UHGV virus genome: UHGV-1533542
Length of the DNA stretch: 30,878 nt
Direction: 5' to 3' (one strand)
Source of the DNA: a virus
In this document: positions 8,154 to 30,044 of the stretch, one piece after another
Layout: the number at the start of each line of letters is the position of its first letter
Numbering within the stretch: the stretch's first letter is position 1
The notes under the pieces: generated by a model
The model's input: only the letters and a program-made list of their open reading frames with translations
Told to the model about the DNA's origin: nothing
The model's database searches: none
Position numbers and translations under genes: made by a program

Positions 8154-8168
8154 TTACCTTAAAGGTAA
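8154..8168. promoter_or_regulatory. ATTACC-N5-GGTAAT dyad, copy b (perfect; TTACC-TTAAA-GGTAA)
   Basis: Perfect inverted repeat about 20 bp upstream of the RBS of minus-strand gene 7405-8133, in the divergent region shared with the Bro-N gene; weaker related site CTTGCTTTCAGGTGA at 8172-8186. Confidence 0.55.
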
Positions 8169-8246: not shown

Positions 8247-8261
8247 TTACCTTTGCGGTAA
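8247..8261. promoter_or_regulatory. ATTACC-N5-GGTAAT dyad, copy b3 (TTACC-TTTGC-GGTAA)
   Basis: Perfect TTACC-N5-GGTAA inside the long 5' region of the Bro-N gene. Confidence 0.5.
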
Positions 8262-8527
8262 ATTTACATCGCACTCCTCTTGTGCCATAGTAATCGGGCA
8301 CTGGATTTTGCCAGTGCCGGGATTGGCGTCCCGGGTTACTACAGAGGCACATATGCCGCATAAGCGGTTTTTTTATGTGTAAAGCGCACCTATTCTATGG
8401 TGGGCTGTGTGGGGGCACCGAAAGGTGCGCCGGGTCCTTTGTAGCCGGTTACGCCAACCCTGCACAGTTCACCACCAACCGATTGGCGTCGGTAGTGGTG
8501 ATTAACCTAACTACAAAGGTGATCACT

Positions 8528-9287: not shown

Positions 9288-9302
9288 TTACCTCAAGGGT
9301 AA
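9288..9302. promoter_or_regulatory. ATTACC-N5-GGTAAT dyad, copy d (TTACC-TCAAG-GGTAA)
   Basis: Perfect TTACC-N5-GGTAA about 60 bp upstream of the small ORF / toxin-like gene pair. Confidence 0.5.
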
Positions 9303-9542: not shown

Positions 9543-10062
9543 TAAAAATCAAATTGTCAGATATAAGGGTCGAGTATTGCATACGCAAAATTTCTCGGCC
9601 CTTTGTGCATCTGATCTTGAGCTGAAGAAAGTATCTGATGCCTTTACCCAGTATTGGAAAACGGGATACCATCCATCTCTTGGTAAAGATGCTGCATTTG
9701 CTCGTCCGACAGAAATGCTTAAACTAAATGTCAGGCATACTCATGTCGATAACCAAGACTATATTCCAGAAGATAGTGATAAAAAACACACTGGTAAAAA
9801 ATCATCTTGGGATGCATGGAAAAATATAGCGTCTGTGCAAGTAAAATGCATACCAACAAGTGATTGCTTTTTAGTTTATTCGGTAAATCACAATCGTGAT
9901 GCGCTGGTTATGTTTTTTGTTGACGCAGATGCCCACAACATAACTGAGCAAGAAGAGTTTAAAGAGGCAGCAATCACTATCAGTTATCAATTCTTTGAGA
10001 AAACAAAAACAGAACCAATGCCTTTAGAAGAAGATCTTTTTTCTGATAAATGGAAGGAATAA
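9517..10062 (+). CDS. 181-aa protein with YafO-like toxin features (candidate mRNA-interferase-type toxin)
   Basis: ATG 9517 with SD AAGGA (ORF opens at TTG 9490); by-eye similarity to my recollection of E. coli YafO (F.QY.K.G..P..GKDA, L.V.HTHV, F/HLVY...AL....D..H); strong terminator follows. Confidence 0.6.
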   Translation: MSSSASQNDKNQIVRYKGRVLHTQNFSALCASDLELKKVSDAFTQYWKTGYHPSLGKDAAFARPTEMLKLNVRHTHVDNQDYIPEDSDKKHTGKKSSWDAWKNIASVQVKCIPTSDCFLVYSVNHNRDALVMFFVDADAHNITEQEEFKEAAITISYQFFEKTKTEPMPLEEDLFSDKWKE

Positions 10063-10086
10063 GCCCGCGTTGCGGGCTTTTTTGTG
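10063..10086 (+). terminator. intrinsic terminator of the plus-strand accessory unit
   Basis: Directly after stop 10062: stem GCCCGC/GCGGGC, 3-nt loop, then TTTTTTGTG. Confidence 0.8.
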
Positions 10087-10120
10087 TCTGCGGATTCCCG
10101 CCCGGGCGGCGGTGGCATTC

Positions 10121-10148
10121 GTTAAAAACAAGGCCGCGAAAGCGGCCT
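10121..10148 (-). terminator. intrinsic terminator ending the long minus-strand virion operon
   Basis: Stem AGGCCGC/GCGGCCT with GAAA loop; on the minus strand it is followed by TTTTT; lies just downstream of the 46-aa ORF stop and abuts palindrome 10149-10160. Confidence 0.6.
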
Positions 10149-10160
10149 GTGACATGTCAC
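10149..10160. repeat. perfect 12-bp palindrome GTGACATGTCAC, copy i
   Basis: Exact palindrome between the stop of the 46-aa ORF and the minus-strand terminator; identical copies at 27433-27444 and 29698-29709. Confidence 0.8.
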
Positions 10161-10167
10161 GCTCACG

Positions 10168-10308
10168 TTATGACAAGCCTATGTACCCTGCTACACCAGA
10201 TAATATCAAAATAACTGCAACAGCAAATTCGCCATCGTCAATGATACATTTACGGTTCATAACGCCAAGTGCAACAAGCGCAAACACAACAAGAATAAAA
10301 GCAATCAT
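10168..10308 (-). CDS. 46-aa two-helix membrane micropeptide, last gene of the virion operon
   Basis: ATG 9 nt after the stop of the 824-aa gene with SD AAGGA; product MIAFILVVFALVALGVMNRKCIIDDGEFAVAVILILSGVAGYIGLS has two hydrophobic segments; not in the ORF track (below size cutoff). Confidence 0.45.
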   Translation of the reverse strand: MIAFILVVFALVALGVMNRKCIIDDGEFAVAVILILSGVAGYIGLS

Positions 10309-10317
10309 TTCTCATCC

Positions 10318-12792
10318 TTATTGCGGAGTGACATCCTGTGGTCGCCACCAGTATGTCTGGTTAAACTCTTTCTTCGAACGTTGCTCCATTTTACGCAAAT
10401 AGCCTGGTGAAAAATACTCCTGCATCTGGTTAAAGATCATGTGATCGAGAGCCGCCTTTAAGTACCAGAGATTCGCACCTGGCATCAAACCTTTCCCCAG
10501 CTTCACCAGATCACCACCAGTCTGCTCACTCTTCCCTTCCACAGCATTTAACGGTATGCCCTGAGCAATCTTCACTACGTCATCAACCAGACCAGCTACC
10601 GGGCCAAGCATCGACGCCAGCGCGCCGCTTCCGTACCTAGTGTGATCTGACAATAAAAAGTCACCGTAAAGGCCAAGACCACCACCTTTCAGTAGAGCAC
10701 CAAGCCAAAATTTAGCAGCATCTTCTCCTGTCATCTCGCGAGGATTACGACCAGACGCAAGGTCGTTAAGTTGCTGCGACAAAGCGCCAAGAATGGTCGT
10801 ACTGGCAATAAACGTCGCAATATATGCCGCACGCCCACCAGCAGACGGCATACCCATAGCGCGTGACCAGTGACGCATAACTACCGAGATAGGGAACGAT
10901 TTAAACAGGAAAACACTTCTCGTTAATTCACCTTTCCATGTTCCACGCTGAATACCAGAACCGGTTATCAGTTGCTCACGTGCTCCCGGTGTAATAACAG
11001 CCATATCAACTTCTTCAGTTACGGCACCGAGAAGTTTACGCATTGCCTCAAATTTCACGCGTTCAGGCTCACCAAGATGTTTAACTGCTGAATCAGGGAT
11101 ACGCATAATGCTTTCCGGTGTCAGCATCGTATTATTGCCGTTCCCCCAGTCCTCCTGTTGCGCCAGCTTCCATACGCTCCAGTCTGTTTCAGTAATCCCT
11201 TTGCTTTTCAGGATACGAAAATCAGAGTCATCGAGGCTACGAAGGTCTGGTGTCCGTGACACTACCTCTCCCAGGCTTCCCATCATTGTTACGCCATAGG
11301 CGCGCTTGTGCGCATCTGACCATGCTGTAAGCCCACTGGCACGCATTACCGCCGTTGCCGCCCAACGAGACACAGACGGCCCCATATTATCCATTGCCCA
11401 GCGGTTAACACTGCCAAGTAGAGATTCCATCGCCAGACCAGCGCGGCGCGCCCGCGCAAGCTCAGTACGGTTCGTTGGGTCCATAGCTTCAAGCTGGTTG
11501 CGGAATAACTGGTTCATTGGAAGGTTGGTCACCTTCGCAGACAGATACATGGTTCCAAGATCAGAGAACGATGACAGCAACGCGGATCCTAGTCGGCTGG
11601 CAACCAGCCAGTTGCGGATATTGTCAGACCAGCGCGCGATGTGCGGATTCGCTACAGGCTGTGTCTTTCCGGAAATAAAGTTGTACAGATTCTCTGTGTT
11701 GTTCGCCAGCCGCTCGACTTTACCGGTTTTACTCGGGTTAGCTGTTGCCGTTTCTGCCTTCACCTGATCAAGAAGAGAGCGGAAAACATGATCGGGGTTT
11801 GGGCCATATGTTTCCACCAGTGCAATATCTTTACTGATACCTTCCAGGTGACCGACCATGATTTCCCATAGAGAGCGATCGCCATAAAGTTGCTGATATT
11901 GCAGATAGGAATCTGCATCTTTGAAATGTATCTGTCGTGATGCATTACCCCGGTTAGCACGTGCGCCGGAAATTCGCATTCCGGTATCAGTAAGCTTATT
12001 CAGCCCACCAGTAGCGATCGTGTTATAAGCCTCTCCAAGAAATGCAGACAACTCGGCATCGTTCATCAGTTGTCCATCGACTCGGGTATAATATTTGCGA
12101 TCCAGCTTACCTATAACATCGCTAACCCACTTATCCTTTGATACCGCCCCAACCTTTTCCATAGAATGATGTTGAGGGATCCCCCAGTTTTCGAGATAGC
12201 CAATGTCCCCACCAGCATCATTAAACCGGCGGCGCAGTAGCTCTGTCACTTCTCTCCACGCCTTAGCACCTTTTCTTGCTTTAGCATTGCCAGTATTTTG
12301 CCCTCGCATTTCATATACCAGGTCACGCACGCCAGCTTCATCTTCAAACAGGCCAAAAAAGCGAGGATCAACTGCTTCAAATGCCTCCTGCAATTGACTC
12401 AATGCATAATCACGAGTGGCTTTTGTTCTGGATTCAACAGAGAGGAAATTCGATTTACCGTCTGCATTAAAAGCAATAGTACGGTTAAGAGCGCCAAGTT
12501 TCCCATCAGCCCCTTGATAGCTATTGATAAATTTATCCAATCTCTGACGTGCGGCTATAGTGAGAGCCACACGACGTTTCTTTAATGCCGCTTCTCGCTG
12601 TAATTCTTCAGATGCCAATTGTGCTGCACGATACAACCGTTCTGATTCGGAAAGTTGTCGCCACGACATCGGATCATCACGAGCAATGGAGCGCATATTT
12701 CGATAAATGCGGTCTTCAATGTTCTGTATTTCTCGCGCCGTTAACGTGCGCTGCGCCGCCTGCTGGACCGCTTGTATACATTCCTGTCTCAT
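10318..12792 (-). CDS. large internal virion / ejection protein (824 aa)
   Basis: Long ORF in the virion operon; position equivalent to internal core/ejection proteins of podoviruses; function by position only. Confidence 0.75.
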   Translation of the reverse strand: MRQECIQAVQQAAQRTLTAREIQNIEDRIYRNMRSIARDDPMSWRQLSESERLYRAAQLASEELQREAALKKRRVALTIAARQRLDKFINSYQGADGKLGALNRTIAFNADGKSNFLSVESRTKATRDYALSQLQEAFEAVDPRFFGLFEDEAGVRDLVYEMRGQNTGNAKARKGAKAWREVTELLRRRFNDAGGDIGYLENWGIPQHHSMEKVGAVSKDKWVSDVIGKLDRKYYTRVDGQLMNDAELSAFLGEAYNTIATGGLNKLTDTGMRISGARANRGNASRQIHFKDADSYLQYQQLYGDRSLWEIMVGHLEGISKDIALVETYGPNPDHVFRSLLDQVKAETATANPSKTGKVERLANNTENLYNFISGKTQPVANPHIARWSDNIRNWLVASRLGSALLSSFSDLGTMYLSAKVTNLPMNQLFRNQLEAMDPTNRTELARARRAGLAMESLLGSVNRWAMDNMGPSVSRWAATAVMRASGLTAWSDAHKRAYGVTMMGSLGEVVSRTPDLRSLDDSDFRILKSKGITETDWSVWKLAQQEDWGNGNNTMLTPESIMRIPDSAVKHLGEPERVKFEAMRKLLGAVTEEVDMAVITPGAREQLITGSGIQRGTWKGELTRSVFLFKSFPISVVMRHWSRAMGMPSAGGRAAYIATFIASTTILGALSQQLNDLASGRNPREMTGEDAAKFWLGALLKGGGLGLYGDFLLSDHTRYGSGALASMLGPVAGLVDDVVKIAQGIPLNAVEGKSEQTGGDLVKLGKGLMPGANLWYLKAALDHMIFNQMQEYFSPGYLRKMEQRSKKEFNQTYWWRPQDVTPQ

Positions 12793-18126: not shown

Positions 18127-20597
18127 CAGAATCCCCCAACAGTAAGGCGAGGAATAACGGCAAGAACAGACAGTGGCAACGGGTCAAGCTGACGGATTCT
18201 TACACGTCCGTTTTTGCCCCAGTTACTGTCCAGTTTCACTTCTACTTTTCCGGTAGCATCATCAACAGAATCATCGTAGAACTCGAATTCACGCTGTGGA
18301 TATTCGTACCATTTACCGCCGGGCGTAGTCGCCCAGATGCCGCGACTGGCATTCACAACCAGAGTAACGGACGGGATCACCTGTTTTTTGTCCAGCAGCG
18401 TTTCCTGTCCGCTAATGTTGATATCCAGTGTTTCGAATTCAGCAGTTATTGGCAGGCCGATGTGCACAACAGCCCCCGGTGATTCCAGCGTGACGGCACC
18501 TCCGGAAACCACTTTCTGTGGTTCCACGTTCGCATCAGAGAGAATGTTTACGGTCTGGCCTTCAAGATGAGACATGCCTCCAAATGTCCGGCGCGCCATC
18601 TGCCAGTTCGTGGTGGCCGCATTCCTGAGGGATGGCGGGACGTTCCTGTTAGCACGAACCACTACAGCGGTATTGCTGGTTACAGAAATAATGTCGCAAC
18701 GTAATTCTTTTGACACTTCATCGCCAGTATCAGGATCAGTTCCGGTATAAGGGAACTGTAGTTGCGCACCAACATCACTACTGGTGAAGTACGCACCACC
18801 AGAAACACTGATTGTATATTCCGCGCGGTAATCCCATTCACCAGAACCACCAGTGATGGTCATCGTTCTGTCAGACGTATTTCTTCCATCATAGCTAAGG
18901 CCAGAATCAACAAAGAAAGCATCTTCATCGCTGGTAAATAAACGGCTGGACAGTCTCTCGATGTATCTCACTGTTTGCCCGTTAACGGTTCTGTTAACGA
19001 CGAAATACACCGCATCTTCATTGCCTTCGCTGATACTGCATGTGCTTTCATATTTTCCGGTACTGGATTGTGGTGCCCATGCAAAAACCTGCTGATCACG
19101 CAAATAGGTCATCACCAGTAATTTACCGTCATCACGAATGCAGAAGGCGCTGGAGTAAGGGACAATCGAGAAGCACCAGTCAACAATGCTGTGCTTCTGA
19201 AAAAGATGATTGGCAAGGATGGTCAGGTCGTTCCCCTGATAGCCGTCAACATCGAATGAGTAGGCCAGATCACGGACAACACTGCCTTTCTCCTGGACGA
19301 ACAGAGCAATATTCGCCACGGCAATTGGTGGGACATTGCTCGAGCCATTTGATCCCTGAGAGCTGAATGCAAATGATGATGGGGTAAGCACTTTGTTCTG
19401 GTCGCCAGTGATGACGTACTCACCTCCGGAAGTCAGCGCCACCAGCGAACCAACATCAATCAGGTGACGGATCTCATTAACCTGACGCCCGGCATAGGTG
19501 TAGATAATTCTGTCGTCATCCTGCGTAGGATTGCTTTTGCCAAAATCCTTATAATCCCCGGTACGGCTGGCCCAGATAGTCTGAGGGAACGCAGTCGATG
19601 CGGCGAAGTAAAGGCGTTGTTGATAATAAACAACAGTGCCAGGATAACCGTTAATACTGTTCCAGGCATATTTAGCCCATTTATAGCTGGCATTATCCTC
19701 GCCAACTACCTGCGAAGGGATATAGGAAATCACCTCGGCAGTTGCAGTAGTTCCATTTGCAGCAGAGATACGGGCAATGCCAAAACCACTGTGCAGATAC
19801 TCCCACTCAATGCCGGTATCATCATCACCGGATCCGCCCCAGCCATCCCATGATGTGCCTTCTGTATGCGAAGGGCGCAAAGTGCCTGTTTTGCCTGCTG
19901 TAACGGCGCGATAGTAGTTACTGTCTGCACGGCGAATATCGCCAATCGACGTACTCTTACTGGTTTCCCATACCGGCACAGAATCCACTGCAGGCTGTTC
20001 CAGATAGAACAATTTGCCTACCTGCTCCGCGCCAAAAATTGAGGCGCTTGCCGTTAACGTAATTGTCCCGGTGCTGGCGCTGGCATAAACCGTCACTGAC
20101 TCGTCAATATTGATATCTTCAAATGGCCCGTTCTTCGTTACCACATCAACCAGTTGCCAGTTGTCATGCGCATAGCGGCGCAACTCTTTCGGCGGGTATG
20201 CCGGATGAACCAGCGTAAGCACGTCTGCGCTTTGCGTGAATTTAATTCGGAACAGATCGGCTTCAGTATATGGCGTGGCAATTTCATAAATAACATTGCT
20301 GCTGTTCAGCACCAACGCACCATCTTTGATAACGCGCATGTACTGGTGTCCGAACTCCAGAGCATAAGTCTGAACCGTCGAGAACTGGAACGGGATCAGG
20401 CGGCATTTCCGATTTGGGTATTTGGCGGCACCGACAAAACGCGTACCAGGTCGATTCTCAACGCCGCCATACTGCCGCACGATAAAGTTATCGCACTTGC
20501 GCAATGCCACCTGGTACTTCGCCATGTCGATACGACCGTACAACGACGGTCCAATCTCACCACCGGCAAAGCTGGGCTGGATCCAACTGATAGCCAT
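18126..20597 (-). CDS. tail tube / nozzle-like protein (823 aa)
   Basis: ATG overlaps upstream stop (ATGA); size and position match the tail tubular protein B analogue of podoviruses; no motif-level confirmation. Confidence 0.7.
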   Translation of the reverse strand: MAISWIQPSFAGGEIGPSLYGRIDMAKYQVALRKCDNFIVRQYGGVENRPGTRFVGAAKYPNRKCRLIPFQFSTVQTYALEFGHQYMRVIKDGALVLNSSNVIYEIATPYTEADLFRIKFTQSADVLTLVHPAYPPKELRRYAHDNWQLVDVVTKNGPFEDINIDESVTVYASASTGTITLTASASIFGAEQVGKLFYLEQPAVDSVPVWETSKSTSIGDIRRADSNYYRAVTAGKTGTLRPSHTEGTSWDGWGGSGDDDTGIEWEYLHSGFGIARISAANGTTATAEVISYIPSQVVGEDNASYKWAKYAWNSINGYPGTVVYYQQRLYFAASTAFPQTIWASRTGDYKDFGKSNPTQDDDRIIYTYAGRQVNEIRHLIDVGSLVALTSGGEYVITGDQNKVLTPSSFAFSSQGSNGSSNVPPIAVANIALFVQEKGSVVRDLAYSFDVDGYQGNDLTILANHLFQKHSIVDWCFSIVPYSSAFCIRDDGKLLVMTYLRDQQVFAWAPQSSTGKYESTCSISEGNEDAVYFVVNRTVNGQTVRYIERLSSRLFTSDEDAFFVDSGLSYDGRNTSDRTMTITGGSGEWDYRAEYTISVSGGAYFTSSDVGAQLQFPYTGTDPDTGDEVSKELRCDIISVTSNTAVVVRANRNVPPSLRNAATTNWQMARRTFGGMSHLEGQTVNILSDANVEPQKVVSGGAVTLESPGAVVHIGLPITAEFETLDINISGQETLLDKKQVIPSVTLVVNASRGIWATTPGGKWYEYPQREFEFYDDSVDDATGKVEVKLDSNWGKNGRVRIRQLDPLPLSVLAVIPRLTVGGF

Positions 20598-24109: not shown

Positions 24110-24406
24110 TCACTCCTGTTCACTGGCCTCTTTGGCCATCTTCAAATACTGTTCAGGGCAATGCGCCATAACGCGCTGAAACAGTTCCAGCGCCAGATTG
24201 CGTTGCCCCTCATTAAATGCCATTGCCATAGCATCCATCGGAGAGATAGCGGAAAACACCCGGCCTTTCTCCAGCACCGACCAGACAACGCGACGCCCCT
24301 GTTCACTGCTCATGACAAAGCGAATGTCATCAATTTCACGCTGTGCCATGTCACGTTGCTTACGGGCGTTTTCTTCTTTCAGTTGATCGTCTTCGTAATC
24401 TGTCAT
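24110..24406 (-). CDS. small acidic protein between portal and scaffold genes (98 aa)
   Basis: ORF start overlaps portal stop; function unknown. Confidence 0.55.
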   Translation of the reverse strand: MTDYEDDQLKEENARKQRDMAQREIDDIRFVMSSEQGRRVVWSVLEKGRVFSAISPMDAMAMAFNEGQRNLALELFQRVMAHCPEQYLKMAKEASEQE

Positions 24407-26393: not shown

Positions 26394-26408
26394 TTACCTT
26401 TCAGGTAA
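26394..26408. promoter_or_regulatory. ATTACC-N5-GGTAAT dyad, copy c (TTACC-TTTCA-GGTAA)
   Basis: Perfect TTACC-N5-GGTAA 17 bp downstream of a TTGACA hexamer (26372-26377), between the divergent head operon and the plus-strand tRNA unit. Confidence 0.5.
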
Positions 26409-26730
26409 CTAAAGAGTTCATTCCGGTTACTAACCTGACTGGCTTGTCGTTAAATTGAACAGGTGGAGTGAGCTTTTATTTTGAGCAGTACGGCGTATGG
26501 CACATGCGACGATAGCGGTCTGGATACGTTTAAGGGGCACCCTCCCTTGCTCGGGCAAACGAACCAGGTAGCCGGAATGTGCAAGTCGAGCGGTTTTATT
26601 CCGCGCACGGGGATTCACCATCCCGGCGATTCGGTGTGACGCCTCGGAAGAGACGAGGGTACAACGATGAGAGCATTTATGGAGCCGCGACAAAGTGTGG
26701 TGCCTTAACAGGCTAAGTGCTCTCAGCGTT
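26409..26730 (+). other. ~320-nt noncoding, GC-rich region between operator copy c and the tRNA (possible tRNA-precursor leader or sRNA)
   Basis: No ORF longer than about 25 codons with an RBS on the plus strand; several local hairpins; minus-strand ORF 26430-26693 is R/H/C-rich and judged spurious. Confidence 0.2.
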
Positions 26731-26807
26731 GTGGCATTAGCTCAGTTGGACAGAGCAACCGCCTTCTAAGCGGTTGGTCGCAGGTTCGAATCCTGCATGC
26801 CACGCCA
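26731..26807 (+). tRNA. tRNA-Arg (anticodon UCU), phage-encoded
   Basis: Cloverleaf read by eye: acceptor GTGGCAT/ATGCCAC, D-arm GCTC..GAGC, anticodon stem ACCGC/GCGGT with loop CTTCTAA (anticodon TCT), T-arm GCAGG-TTCGAAT-CCTGC, encoded CCA; body close to but distinct from E. coli argU as I recall it. Confidence 0.88.
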
Positions 26808-26970
26808 GAATCACGCCTAAGGACCGTGATGCCAGAAGTTCCAGGGGCTTGGCGGTGATGGTTTCCCTTGAAGGACTATCACCGCCCTTTTTACAGCAGG
26901 ACGCCATTGCGATGACTTCATGCTGTAAACCAGTACAGCCACGGAAGGCATAACTCATTGCTTCCAGTTC

Positions 26971-26994
26971 GCCCGGTTCGCCGGGCATTTTTTT
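26971..26994 (+). terminator. intrinsic terminator downstream of tRNA, abutting the RBS of the 27006 gene
   Basis: GCCCGG-TTCG-CCGGGC followed by ATTTTTTT, which runs into SD AAGGTG; a second weaker hairpin GGCGGTGAT...ATCACCGCC + CTTTTT at about 26851-26890. Confidence 0.6.
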
Positions 26995-27005
26995 AAGGTG
27001 AGATT

Positions 27006-27428
27006 ATGAAGACAATTGATATGTTGGCTAAGTATCTAAATGAATGGCCATTAAAATATTCTCGTATCGTTCAGGCTGAAGACTGCGTTTTTTATGGCGT
27101 TTTTGCTGGTAATGAAATGCATTACGAAGTAATTCAGAGTGAGGGACTGACCGGGTTAACTCTTAGCGAAGACCATGGTACTAGCGTTACGTTCCATGAC
27201 TGGATAACAGCACAACGTTCTGAAATGGAAAAAGGCGATGTGTTTGATATTTCTCGCTCTGTATACGCCAAAGAAAAAAGTGATGATGATTACATGCGCG
27301 AAAACTTATACAACATGAAGTTACAATGCCTGGCTGAAGTGCTTAGTAAAAGATCTTTACTTGATGTGGTTGGTGCTGAGCAGGACGCCAAGGCAATCAA
27401 CGCCGCATTCGATAAAATAACCTTCTAA
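27006..27428 (+). CDS. 140-aa acidic cytoplasmic protein, unknown function (moron between terminase and portal)
   Basis: ATG with SD AAGGTG; no TM or signal peptide; about 24 Asp/Glu vs 15 Lys/Arg; opposite strand to flanking virion genes; followed by palindrome and terminator. Confidence 0.7.
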   Translation: MKTIDMLAKYLNEWPLKYSRIVQAEDCVFYGVFAGNEMHYEVIQSEGLTGLTLSEDHGTSVTFHDWITAQRSEMEKGDVFDISRSVYAKEKSDDDYMRENLYNMKLQCLAEVLSKRSLLDVVGAEQDAKAINAAFDKITF

Positions 27429-27432
27429 CGCA

Positions 27433-27444
27433 GTGACATGTCAC
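27433..27444. repeat. perfect 12-bp palindrome GTGACATGTCAC, copy ii
   Basis: Exact copy 5 bp after the stop at 27428 and 5 bp before terminator hairpin 27449-27476. Confidence 0.8.
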
Positions 27445-27448
27445 AAAC

Positions 27449-27476
27449 AGCCAGCCGATGAGCTGGCTTTGTTTTA
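27449..27476. terminator. intrinsic terminator (bidirectional candidate) between the 140-aa gene and terL
   Basis: Stem AGCCAGC/GCTGGCT with 6-nt loop followed by TTTGTTTTA on the plus strand; A-rich on the other side. Confidence 0.65.
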
Positions 27477-27518: not shown

Positions 27519-28994
27519 TTAAGCATAGGGATCGTAATCTGTGATGGCCTTGCCTTGCTGGTTCTGCTGACCGGGAATTCGCAGACGCTTCGACACAGGG
27601 AACGCAAACGTCAGCAGTAGCGCATCGCCTTTACCAGGAGAACGCCCAAGCCGCTCCTTGATATCTTCCTTCTGTTCGATAATGATTTTACCGTCCACGC
27701 GAACTTTGTACTCTGCCGCCGACAGGTCGTCCGCTGTTTCCTGGTCATCCAGCATGCCGCCCAGCCTCAGCCATGTCTTGCATGAATTGAACATCTCCCC
27801 ACGCTTGTTGAGCATCTGCGGGTCAGTAGACGCGCCACCGAACGGAACAAGTTGCCATGTACGACCCCATCCGTCACCGATTGACTTCAAACCGGTTCCG
27901 TAACCGAAGTCGATGAACACCGCGTCAGCCTGATACTGGTCTTCAAAGTCAGCGATACGCTTTGCCATAATCAGATCGTCAGTGGTCTTGTTGCCAGTCC
28001 ACAGCACCTTACTGTGCAGCCCCTGCCGCAGGTATATCACAGCGTCATCAACGCCTGAGTATGCCGGGTCAACGCCGATTATCACCGGAGCATGTGCAAC
28101 CTGCGCAGCGGTGACCACCCGTTTCATTGCCTCGTCAGTAAGTCCGGTAGGGATAAACTGCAATTCAGATGCATCCGGGAATATGCCGCGCACACGGATT
28201 TTAACGAAGTCGCTGTCTTCCCCGTAGTCATCAACCCATTTCTGCAACTGCTGTTTGTTGGTGCCTTCCACCGTCCGGCTGTCAATCTGCGCAGTTTTCC
28301 AGCGGTGTTTATATTTGCGGAAACATTCGCGGAAACGTCCGGTATTACGCGTCGGGTTTCCGAACGCCACCCAGATAATCTCAGTGTCTTCGTCCGTTAG
28401 CGCACCCTCGGCAACTTCCCACACCAGATCCGCAATGTTCGACGCTTCATCGAATACCACGATGATGCGTTTGCGCTCGTTGTGTAGTCCGGCGAATGCC
28501 TCAGTGTTGTGCTCAGACCAGGGTATTGCGTCAGCTCGCCACCGCTTGTCGTGTCCAGGATCATTGCTGTACATCGCGGTAGCGGTACAGGTAAACCAGT
28601 CTTTCGTGATAGCAAGGTTCGACCACTTGATAATTTCCGGCCAGGTCTTCGTTCGTAGCTGGTTGTCGGTGTTGGCGGTCACCACAACCTTACAATCCTC
28701 GCAAGTGGACATGCCCCAGTTGATCAGCATTGAGATGAATGCGGATTTACCAATACCGTGACCCGAAGCGCGTGCCAGCATAAGCGGCTGATAGCGCGTC
28801 TCTGGATTCTGCAGGTGATCACGTATCTCTCGGAACGCATCAGCCTGCCACTGACGTGGACCGGTGGCATGTGCCAGTTCAGTCCCATCTTCCCCCCACG
28901 GGAACGCATAGAGGGCATAGCCAAGCGGATCGTGAGTGAACCCTGCAATATCCTCGATTAACTGCTCTTCAGGAGATAACGCTGTATCTGTCAC
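27519..28994 (-). CDS. terminase large subunit
   Basis: 491 aa; Walker A-like SGHGIGKS in N-terminal ATPase part, acidic nuclease-type C-terminal part; GTG start overlaps terS stop; directly upstream of portal module. Confidence 0.92.
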   Translation of the reverse strand: MTDTALSPEEQLIEDIAGFTHDPLGYALYAFPWGEDGTELAHATGPRQWQADAFREIRDHLQNPETRYQPLMLARASGHGIGKSAFISMLINWGMSTCEDCKVVVTANTDNQLRTKTWPEIIKWSNLAITKDWFTCTATAMYSNDPGHDKRWRADAIPWSEHNTEAFAGLHNERKRIIVVFDEASNIADLVWEVAEGALTDEDTEIIWVAFGNPTRNTGRFRECFRKYKHRWKTAQIDSRTVEGTNKQQLQKWVDDYGEDSDFVKIRVRGIFPDASELQFIPTGLTDEAMKRVVTAAQVAHAPVIIGVDPAYSGVDDAVIYLRQGLHSKVLWTGNKTTDDLIMAKRIADFEDQYQADAVFIDFGYGTGLKSIGDGWGRTWQLVPFGGASTDPQMLNKRGEMFNSCKTWLRLGGMLDDQETADDLSAAEYKVRVDGKIIIEQKEDIKERLGRSPGKGDALLLTFAFPVSKRLRIPGQQNQQGKAITDYDPYA

Positions 28995-29587
28995 TGATTA
29001 CCATCCTGACGTTCTTTGAGTCGCTTCCTGGCTGCTGCTATGCGATCAGCAATTGTCACATTCACATTAACATCCAGACGTTCTTTGAATGCGTTGACAT
29101 CAACATGCTTACCAATCAGCTCAAGGTTCTTCACCTTGTCAGGCCATTTAATTTTTTTGAGGATTGTCTCTATTGAATCCTCGTTCATGTTCATGATGGT
29201 CGATGACAGATCAAAGCCACTAAGCGTAGTGCGCCAGATTTTCGGCCACTCACGGATTGGTTTAAGGCTCCCATCGTCGTTGAGGATGTCGATCACGTCC
29301 ATCTGGTCGATCTCCACCAGGCGCATGAGAACGTAATCAGCACTGACACGCATTCGTTTGTTGCGCTCCTCCATCAACTCGGCAATCCGTTTCTGAATGC
29401 GTTCATCGCGCATCATGACACTGGCTTTAACTGCCGCTGTATTTGGGGAGAATCCTGCGTTAATCGCAGCCTGAGTCTGGTTTTCAGGCGTTTTGATGTA
29501 TGACTGGCAATAAGCCTCCTGCATTGCTGTGAGCGGCTTAAATTGCGTTGATTTGCGTTTATAGGTTTTAGGTTCAGCAGGCATCAT
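28991..29587 (-). CDS. terminase small subunit
   Basis: Start set at ATG 29587 (MMPAEPK...) because the TTG-opened extension to 29665 contains an intrinsic terminator; HTH-type segment TAMQEAYCQSYIKTPENQTQAAINAGFS typical of small terminases (memory). Confidence 0.8.
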   Translation of the reverse strand: MMPAEPKTYKRKSTQFKPLTAMQEAYCQSYIKTPENQTQAAINAGFSPNTAAVKASVMMRDERIQKRIAELMEERNKRMRVSADYVLMRLVEIDQMDVIDILNDDGSLKPIREWPKIWRTTLSGFDLSSTIMNMNEDSIETILKKIKWPDKVKNLELIGKHVDVNAFKERLDVNVNVTIADRIAAARKRLKERQDGNQ

Positions 29588-29630
29588 AACCACCGTGGTA
29601 ATTGTTACCGTTGTGGTAATAGTACCATGC

Positions 29631-29656
29631 AAAATAAAGCCGCCATAGTTGGCGGC
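29631..29656 (-). terminator. intrinsic terminator immediately upstream of terS
   Basis: GCCGCC-ATAGTT-GGCGGC hairpin followed on the minus strand by TTTATTTT; lies between the nin-like genes and the terS ATG. Confidence 0.6.
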
Positions 29657-29697: not shown

Positions 29698-29709
29698 GTG
29701 ACATGTCAC
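29698..29709. repeat. perfect 12-bp palindrome GTGACATGTCAC, copy iii
   Basis: Exact copy overlapping the stop codon of the 112-aa Zn-finger gene, about 40 bp upstream (minus sense) of the pre-terS terminator. Confidence 0.8.
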
Positions 29710-30044
29710 ACTATTAATTTCGTTTCATGCCAGCCTTTAGTCACCCAGCATTGCGAGTCACCATTACACGGGCATGAATTAACTGGAACTCTCTCGCCGC
29801 ACTTACCGCAACGTTTTCTGCTGATCGATTTTATACGCCCGCGCACGCGTGCATCATCCTGGCGGATCAGTAACGCTATATACTCACCAAATTCGTAAGG
29901 CGCACGCCCGGGGCGACGCGTGGCACAGTTACGCTCCAGCATTTCAATTTCCTGAGCATCAAGCACAATCTCCAGCTTACGCACACCAGATGCAGCTTGT
30001 CTGGCTCTCTGAGCGGCTTTGCGCTCTGCTGCTGATTTAGCCAT
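29706..30044 (-). CDS. 112-aa basic protein with C-terminal Cys4 zinc-finger-like motif (possible late-gene regulator)
   Basis: ATG 30044 with SD AAGGT (ORF opens at TTG 30047); N-terminal basic helical region; C-terminal CGKCG...CPC; last gene before terS. Confidence 0.55.
   Translation of the reverse strand: MAKSAAERKAAQRARQAASGVRKLEIVLDAQEIEMLERNCATRRPGRAPYEFGEYIALLIRQDDARVRGRIKSISRKRCGKCGERVPVNSCPCNGDSQCWVTKGWHETKLIV

Follow-up and report, generated by a model that had tools for sequence, protein, structure and literature searches.

A palindrome beside terminators in a Uetakevirus prophage as the probable operator of a phage-encoded 112-residue protein

Why does a phage genome keep one and the same 12-bp palindrome at three junctions between its gene modules, each time with a terminator hairpin downstream? 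The question is raised by UHGV virus genome UHGV-1533542, a stretch of 30,878 nucleotides that is analysed here as a whole and called the window; it is an epsilon15/phiV10-like podovirus prophage (genus Uetakevirus), with its late genes on the minus strand and phage DNA at its left end too. The palindrome is GTGACATGTCAC, and one of its copies overlaps the stop codon of a gene for a 112-residue protein. We conclude that the palindrome is, very probably, the cognate double-stranded DNA (dsDNA) operator of this protein, because the site is dyad-symmetric, keeps its arms invariant while its centre is free, and is linked to a gene for a predicted dimeric dsDNA-binding fold. As for the output, the position of the sites points, with rather less than even confidence, to a roadblock or insulator at transcription-unit boundaries, and we regard the reading as a whole, in which the site of the 112-residue protein serves as a boundary roadblock or insulator, as evenly balanced.

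Three copies of the palindrome, each upstream of a terminator

The copies, and the gene of the proposed binder, are located as follows.

10149-10160, copy i, exact GTGACATGTCAC, at the end of the virion operon and facing the convergent accessory island (isrK and C4 first)
27433-27444, copy ii, exact GTGACATGTCAC, between terL and the convergent plus-strand unit of tRNA-Arg and a moron gene
29698-29709, copy iii, exact GTGACATGTCAC, overlapping the TGA stop codon (29708-29706) of the 112-residue protein gene, upstream of terS
29706-30044 (minus strand), gene of the 112-residue protein, PhiV10p55/epsilon15 gp49/N15 gp46 family (phrog_536), the proposed binder

There are exactly three exact copies in the window, at the coordinates given by the initial annotation, and the rarity it claimed for them holds: under a uniform model, any one given 12-bp palindrome is expected about 0.002 times in 30.9 kb. 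Allowing at most one mismatch, none of 100 dinucleotide shuffles of phiV10 matched the observed palindrome count. Among the 1024 possible 5-nt inverted arms with a 2-nt gap, GTGAC ranks top or joint top in the window, epsilon15, SPN1S, Tyrion and the Pectobacterium myovirus ZF40, and in its general form the site is written GTGAC-N2-GTCAC below. One further copy, with a single mismatch (GTGCCATGTCAC), is found at 24343-24354 within a virion-gene coding region; it is common to phiV10 (5306), is not present in epsilon15, SPN1S or Tyrion, and may be a chance occurrence or a lineage-specific weak site.

Downstream of each copy is a hairpin that a terminator scan and RNA folding identify as an intrinsic terminator, GC-rich and followed by a T-tract.

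10121-10148 (minus strand), terminator i, stem 10148-10131, AGGCCGC-TTTC-GCGGCCT followed by TGTTTTT, 0 nt after copy i
27449-27476 (plus strand), terminator ii, stem 27449-27468, AGCCAGC-CGATGA-GCTGGCT followed by TTGTTTTA, 4 nt after copy ii
29631-29656 (minus strand), terminator iii, stem 29656-29639, GCCGCC-AACTAT-GGCGGC followed by TTTATTTT, 41 nt after copy iii

The pairing of palindrome and hairpin that had been described from the window is thus borne out, the palindrome lying upstream by 0, 4 and 41 nt in each T-tract direction. At all three terminators the T-tract is present in one direction only. Terminator i serves the late (minus) strand, and on the opposite strand the hairpin is followed by the palindrome, with no T-tract; terminator ii serves only the plus-strand (moron) direction, and towards terL its hairpin is followed by GTTTGTGAC.

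Epsilon15, SPN1S and Tyrion each have the 12-mer, letter for letter, at the three corresponding junctions, even though they are only about 80% identical to the window or their intergenic DNA is unalignable. In phiV10, copies i and ii are exact and the third has one mismatch (GTGACATGTTAC). Flanking intergenic DNA, hairpin sequences and adjacent genes all vary around the constant 12-mer. Copy i recurs at the homologous place in phiV10, epsilon15, SPN1S, Tyrion and the Klebsiella phage BUCT711, at 0-2 nt from its hairpin in the compared Uetakeviruses and at 10 nt in BUCT711. At copy ii the hairpin sequence differs from phage to phage, with the palindrome fixed 4 nt away (five phages). Copy iii overlaps the stop codon also in epsilon15, SPN1S, Tyrion and most of 80 relatives from IMG/VR, and its distance to the terminator is 22 nt in the three named phages.

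BUCT711 carries four copies of the motif, including copy i (with the same terminator) and a copy after the gene. In its positions 431-520, the post-gene copy is followed by TTGACT-N15-TATACT, a perfect LexA-type box (CTGT-N8-ACAG) and a 109-residue protein gene, with no terminator. The promoter and LexA box thus take the place of the terminator, which indicates that the module downstream of the site is exchangeable. The near-copies GTGACATGTCAT and GTGACATGGCAT, in SPN1S at 26722 and epsilon15 at 26618, overlap the end of the Rz spanin gene, with which the lysis unit closes; nothing corresponds to them in the window.

The site accompanies one gene in unrelated phages

Relatives of the 112-residue protein are found by tblastn in very different temperate phages, and GTGAC-N2-GTCAC is over-represented in each of them. 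ZF40 has three exact copies, one of them 2 nt past the stop codon of the homologue. N15 has three copies of GTGAC(TG/CA)GTCAC, one of which overlaps the stop codon of gene 46. Vibrio phage K233 also has three, two of which lie 19 nt before start codons, one of these being that of terS. Yersinia P2-like phages carry, downstream of the gene, one perfect site with two imperfect flanking sites at 33-34 bp spacing; this array (for example at 11670-11760) follows a small hairpin amid variable cargo genes, downstream of replication gene A, at what we take to be the tin/old accessory hotspot of P2. In loci from IMG/VR the observed and expected numbers of motifs are as follows.

Uetake-like loci, 125 motifs observed in 1.31 Mb, 1.25 expected
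N15-like loci, 105 motifs observed in 0.88 Mb, 0.84 expected
P2-like loci, 59 motifs observed in 1.15 Mb, 1.1 expected

The motif is therefore enriched about 100-fold over chance in the three gene-carrying groups. At every family-gene hit of the N15-like group, the site closest to the gene overlaps its stop codon, and in a further environmental clade the site is on the stop codon or 1 nt beyond it. The association is also seen in reverse: 21 of 80 viral-contig stretches chosen solely for TGTGACATGTCACA include the gene, short as the stored stretches are, and in about 13 of the 21 the gene match ends 0-13 nt away from a site. In lambda and P2 (82 kb), neither the gene nor the motif was found.

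Across these phages the arms are constant and the central two nucleotides are free (AT, TG, CA, GC, AC, CC and GG all occur), a combination characteristic of a dyad-symmetric dsDNA site bound by a homodimer. A copy inside the repA coding sequence of N15 at 33237, GTGACTGGTCAC, is unchanged in all N15-like loci where it is seen, although its flanks vary, which argues for selection on the DNA sequence itself. In Aeromonas phage 85AhydR10PP, whose family protein is divergent (about 30% identity), the consensus site is not present, and three identical variant sites GTGACCGGACAC occur at 19904, 44302 and 46954. All three follow closely on a -10-like box and precede a start codon by 14-16 nt; one of them is 14 nt upstream of the start codon of the family gene itself, a layout typical of autoregulation. 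To judge from these sequences, the site appears to have changed together with the protein. A dyad-symmetric site that co-occurs with the gene is what a ribbon-helix-helix (RHH) regulator and its operator present, and the suggestion, made from the window, that the palindrome might be a protein site gains support from the co-occurrence of gene and motif in unrelated phages, with the 112-residue protein, for which the initial annotation had proposed a binding test, as the likely binder.

The 112-residue protein

Searches of Pfam, NCBIfam and PDB sequences gave no significant match for the 112-residue protein, and a Foldseek search against the PDB gave nothing significant. Its family (phrog_536) comprises about 240 clusters at 50% identity, nearly all of them stand-alone proteins of about 110 residues. 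The AlphaFold2 model (pLDDT, the predicted local distance difference test, of 79) has a basic N-terminal helix (residues 5-18), an extended segment, helices at 30-42 and 52-75, and a C-terminal part made of a Cys-rich loop and a last helix. The predicted strand-helix-helix arrangement is that of the RHH fold, and the protein models as an RHH DNA binder with a TraR-like zinc finger.

Alignment of the C-terminal half to TraR of the F plasmid gives an hhalign probability of 77% and E=2e-5 (hmmsearch versus PDB, E=0.2). The similarity is weak, with an invariant Thr in place of the fourth Cys and no match to Pfam zf-dskA_traR. In the N-terminal half, the basic helix holds invariant residues (R8 and R13), and the residues of the beta-strand vary. 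The literature searched on epsilon15/phiV10 regulation and on N15 held nothing on the function of the 112-residue protein or of the site, nor was the 12-mer itself found in it.

Transcription-unit boundaries and a possible roadblock

The placement of copies i, ii and iii at module junctions, as first described, agrees with the gene context. The genes and other features that define the junctions are listed here.

10168-10308 (minus strand), 46-residue open reading frame (ORF) with two transmembrane segments, the closing gene of the virion operon, equal to PhiV10p21 ('putative integral membrane protein')
8298-8374 (plus strand), isrK, Rfam, 56.7 bits
8393-8479 (plus strand), C4 antisense RNA, Rfam, 79.5 bits
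26731-26807 (plus strand), tRNA-Arg (anticodon UCU), upstream of the moron gene
27006-27428 (plus strand), 140-residue moron gene, phrog_4846, with no assigned function, ending 4 nt before copy ii
27519-28994 (minus strand), terL, from the ORF list and the phiV10 annotation
28991-29587 (minus strand), terS, Pfam Terminase_2, E=1e-29
29605-29619, operator TTACC-N5-GGTAA, between terminator iii and terS, at the start of the terS-terL unit and separate from the palindrome system

The stop codon of the 46-residue ORF lies 7 nt before copy i. On the other side of that copy, isrK and C4 form an antisense-RNA control module of the P1/N15 type, which heads the accessory island, is convergent on copy i and is presumably an antirepressor unit. 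The tRNA-Arg and the moron gene together make up the plus-strand unit with copy ii at its end, and the gene at the moron position varies among relatives. Copies iii and ii bracket the terS-terL unit (27519-29587, minus strand), and the gene of the 112-residue protein is the last of the early-right operon, followed by the terminator, the repressor-type operator and terS.

The operator TTACC-N5-GGTAA occurs five times in the window (8154-8168, 8247-8261, 9288-9302, 26394-26408 and 29605-29619; 0.01 expected) and matches the prophage-repressor sites annotated in epsilon15. All five lie at unit starts (terS, the portal unit and the isrK/C4 island are among the units that they precede), which suggests that the prophage repressor directly controls several 'late' units. 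Unit starts are thus marked by repressor operators, and unit ends by the palindrome and a terminator.

Across the phages compared, the feature shared by the site positions is the boundary between transcription units. One of the N15 sites separates the end of gene 33 from the promoter of an isrK-C4 pair (28301-28489, just downstream of the palindrome), the Rfam start of which coincides with the predicted transcription start site. In BUCT711 the site is between the family gene and the LexA-box (SOS) promoter, in K233 it precedes the terS start by the 19 nt noted above, and in the P2-like phages the sites are between cargo genes. The distance from site to nearest promoter ranges from about -66 to about +13, which corresponds to no single activator or repressor geometry and fits a roadblock that is independent of orientation.

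From the observed linkage of site and gene and from the predicted fold we infer binding, and from the position of the sites the output; the mechanism that we propose is as follows. The protein would be a dimer of the RHH type, its N-terminal helix basic and its C-terminal part a Cys-rich zinc finger resembling that of TraR; each of the invariant 5-bp arms would be read by one invariant basic helix (R8, R13), and the variable beta-ribbon would lie over the free central 2 bp. Made from the last early-right gene, the protein would then occupy its three sites, where the bound dimer may act as an orientation-independent roadblock or insulator against RNA polymerase leaking from either side. Polymerase leaving the early operon would be kept out of terS, the tRNA/moron unit and terL would be shielded from each other, and so would the virion operon and the antirepressor-type island of isrK-C4; the block would complement the one-directional terminators just downstream of each site. 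As the gene's own stop codon lies in one of the sites, the roadblock could limit synthesis of the protein as well as downstream expression, with no need for a dedicated promoter.

Several points weigh against this reading. The link between protein and site comes from comparison of genomes, and the roadblock output from position. All three terminators look strong by themselves, and an extra block may therefore be redundant. The Aeromonas sites occupy positions of about +8 to +20 relative to promoter-like sequences, with ribosome-binding sites just after them, and the three sites of the P2-like phages, at 33-34 bp spacing, lie over a probable promoter; for both layouts an ordinary promoter repressor fits as well as a roadblock. 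Finally, a boundary role is not obvious for the sites in coding regions (ZF40 5125 and 7622, N15 33237, BUCT711 23066 and 26462).

Alternative explanations

The same protein and sites could have another output, namely control of termination through contact with RNA polymerase, with the DNA-tethered protein either handing its TraR-like zinc-finger module to the passing polymerase or sitting just behind it at the T-tract. Termination efficiency would then be altered (antitermination or enhanced termination), which differs from a simple block. The site lies on the upstream side of the T-tract direction in every case, at 0-4 nt from the hairpin for copies i and ii in five genomes (10 nt at copy i of BUCT711) and at 22-41 nt for copy iii; the gene is the last before the terminator and terS, a Q-like position; and TraR, to which the C-terminal half aligns, binds the secondary channel of RNA polymerase. 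However, no terminator stands beside the stop-overlapping site of N15, the sites of ZF40 and K233 or BUCT711 copy 431, and the tight coupling of palindrome and terminator, which the initial annotation proposed to look for in related genomes, holds in the Uetakeviruses and fails in the other carriers. The resemblance to TraR is also limited, by the missing fourth Cys and Pfam match already described, and the part aligned to the channel-inserting helix of TraR is helix 2 of the RHH fold. Each late unit seems to own a repressor-controlled start, so that read-through is not obviously needed, and antitermination at copy ii would drive moron transcripts antisense into terL. We consider control of termination unlikely.

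To bolder readings, which extend this idea or the MatP explanation considered below, we give roughly one chance in ten. The family might be a new class of DNA-tethered transcription-elongation factor, in which an RHH clamp on matS-like sites delivers a TraR-like secondary-channel module to RNA polymerase at defined points of the phage genome, for site-by-site termination or release, or it might be a mimic of MatP/matS that manipulates machinery of the MatP/MukBEF type on phage or host DNA.

An element that acts as RNA is a slightly fainter prospect. The transcribed GUGACAUGUCAC would be bound as a hairpin or single strand and would modulate the terminator or ribosome-binding site that follows. 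The sites are indeed transcribed; they lie directly 5' of terminator hairpins in the Uetakeviruses, and in the N15-like, Vibrio and Aeromonas phages they are 0-9 nt before the Shine-Dalgarno sequence and 12-19 nt before the start codon. A precedent is the zinc-finger protein Com of phage Mu, the mRNA target of which lies where its own gene ends. Against an RNA element, even very distant phages share the same arms, compensatory changes being absent and the centre free, the RHH fold predicted for the protein belongs to a dsDNA-binding class, the 33-34 bp arrays of the P2-like phages point to DNA, and no Rfam family overlaps the palindrome sites. The boxB/put-like antitermination element that had been proposed for the palindrome is not supported, and its RNA hairpin amounts to only -1.2 kcal/mol, equal to that of shuffled sequences. 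Both N/nut boxB and HK022 put were rejected as identities, there being no stable covarying RNA stem-loop and no Rfam match, with the sites at unit 3' ends.

The palindromes might instead be bound by host MatP, or mimic matS, so that phage DNA is organised or positioned or MukBEF is manipulated, with no role in transcription. The carrier phages infect Enterobacterales, Vibrio and Aeromonas, the MatP-bearing clade, which counts in favour. So does the identity of the 5-bp arms with those of matS, the consensus of which, GTGACRNYGTCAC, has the same GTGAC/GTCAC arms (PMC6907758). The spacer, however, is 2 bp and not 3: GTGAC-N3-GTCAC is absent from eight of nine carrier genomes (including the window, epsilon15, SPN1S, Tyrion, ZF40 and N15) and occurs once in K233. 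Moreover, the motif tracks the phage gene rather than the host, and the Aeromonas variant site changes along with its phage protein. The protein has no significant similarity to MatP, hhalign of the family profile versus E. coli MatP (sequence verified against 4d8j) giving E=0.53 over the RHH region only. The 12-bp site, the spacer and the absent homology to MatP rule out membership of matS, and the explanation as a whole is highly improbable.

The weakest of the explanations, hardly credible in our estimate, is that the palindromes are only recombination linkers or scars of moron and island insertion, with no regulatory role: homology between the window and phiV10 does break off right at the edge of copy ii, and again some 30 nt beyond terminator i, the genes beside sites i and ii differ among relatives and the P2-like sites are flanked by variable cargo, but an exact 12-mer across genera with a free 2-nt centre would be unexpected of a scar, the motif is kept within repA of N15-like phages while its flanks vary, and it follows the gene of a specific, putatively DNA-binding protein across unrelated phage types. 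As to the linker role first suggested, homology does break at copy ii, but the presence of the motif in coding DNA of N15-like phages and beside start codons in others speaks against it; recombination would be at most a by-product.

Four other identities were considered, of which the first appears unlikely and the other three were rejected. A cos site might be suspected since the phiV10 record starts in copy iii, but this is merely because the record begins after the last gene; the records of epsilon15, SPN1S and Tyrion start elsewhere, and three copies per genome, with those of N15 and ZF40 far from terminase genes, argue against both cos and pac. The prophage-repressor operator is a different motif in epsilon15, ATTACC-N5-GGTAAT, which is separately present in the window. 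As a -35 element (GTGACA resembling TTGACA), only copy iii has a weak -10 (GTGACA-18-CATGAT), and this is not positionally conserved. For a Q/qut system of late antitermination, searches of Pfam, NCBIfam and PDB sequences gave no match to Q proteins, and copies i and ii have no promoter match.

Comparison with known systems

Returning to the operator of the 112-residue protein, we find the closest parallels in the RHH repressors (Arc and Mnt of P22, CopG, omega, AmrZ, TacA/ParD), which likewise are small proteins with a dyad site and a gene beside the site; the site of the Aeromonas relative, just downstream of its own promoter-like sequence, adds to the likeness. Unlike these repressors, the phage protein has an extra C-terminal zinc finger and an N-terminal basic helix, the linked site is mostly at the 3' end of the gene, often on the stop codon, rather than at a promoter, and in the window all sites are at operon ends beside terminators. 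With MatP-matS the system has in common the identical inverted arms (GTGAC ... GTCAC) and the few dispersed sites per replicon. It differs in the spacer (2 bp in the phage site, 3 bp in matS), in a binder that appears to be phage-encoded, in sites at gene boundaries and in the protein, which is without the four-helix bundle and coiled coil of MatP and has the basic N-terminal helix and Cys-rich zinc finger.

The arrangement resembles Q/qut, N/nut and HK022 put in that a small-regulator gene ends the early operon, followed by a terminator and the first packaging gene, and in that the element is upstream of terminators. It departs from them in that sites i and ii are outside promoters and the sites are at unit 3' ends, not in leaders; in addition, the 112-residue protein matches no Pfam family, including antiterminator Q, and ZF40 and N15 carry separate Q-like genes. 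With DksA/TraR proteins (F TraR, lambda orf73) the likeness is confined to the C-terminal half (helix, CxxCG..LP...G...C, helix). The C4 form in that family is CxxC-x17-CxxC, in contrast to the invariant Thr of the phage protein; the phage module is fused to an RHH domain, and the acidic residues of the tip that enters the RNA polymerase channel are not evident. As an analogy only, the operator O3 overlaps the 3' end of lacI, the gene of its own regulator, and LacI bound there reportedly yields truncated lacI mRNA and tagging by tmRNA.

Taken together, the proposed pair is of a known kind, an RHH regulator with its operator, and is unusual in its domain fusion, in a site at the gene 3' end and at operon ends, and in its matS half-sites. 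It provides a candidate function, a cognate DNA site, for a family labelled only 'hypothetical' or 'transcriptional regulator' that spans temperate phages of the epsilon15/phiV10, N15, P2 and ZF40 types and of Vibrio and Aeromonas, and it suggests that these phages mark unit ends with a protein-bound palindrome besides terminators. If this is true, such marking would offer a simple means of turning one-directional terminators into insulators that work both ways, set between lytic operons and cargo of the lysogenic-conversion or antirepressor kind. The half-sites identical to those of matS raise possible cross-talk with chromosome organisation, and the protein-site pair could be a compact orthogonal operator/regulator part.

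Other features of the locus

A minus-strand ORF at 26737-26988 overlaps the tRNA-Arg and may be no real gene. The GC palindrome CCGCCCGGGCGG at 10098-10109, which had been noted next to copy i, is present, between the convergent terminators at 10061-10079 (plus strand) and 10121-10148 (minus strand), but is not kept in phiV10; it probably marks a mosaic junction, because the phiV10 sequence diverges at that point.

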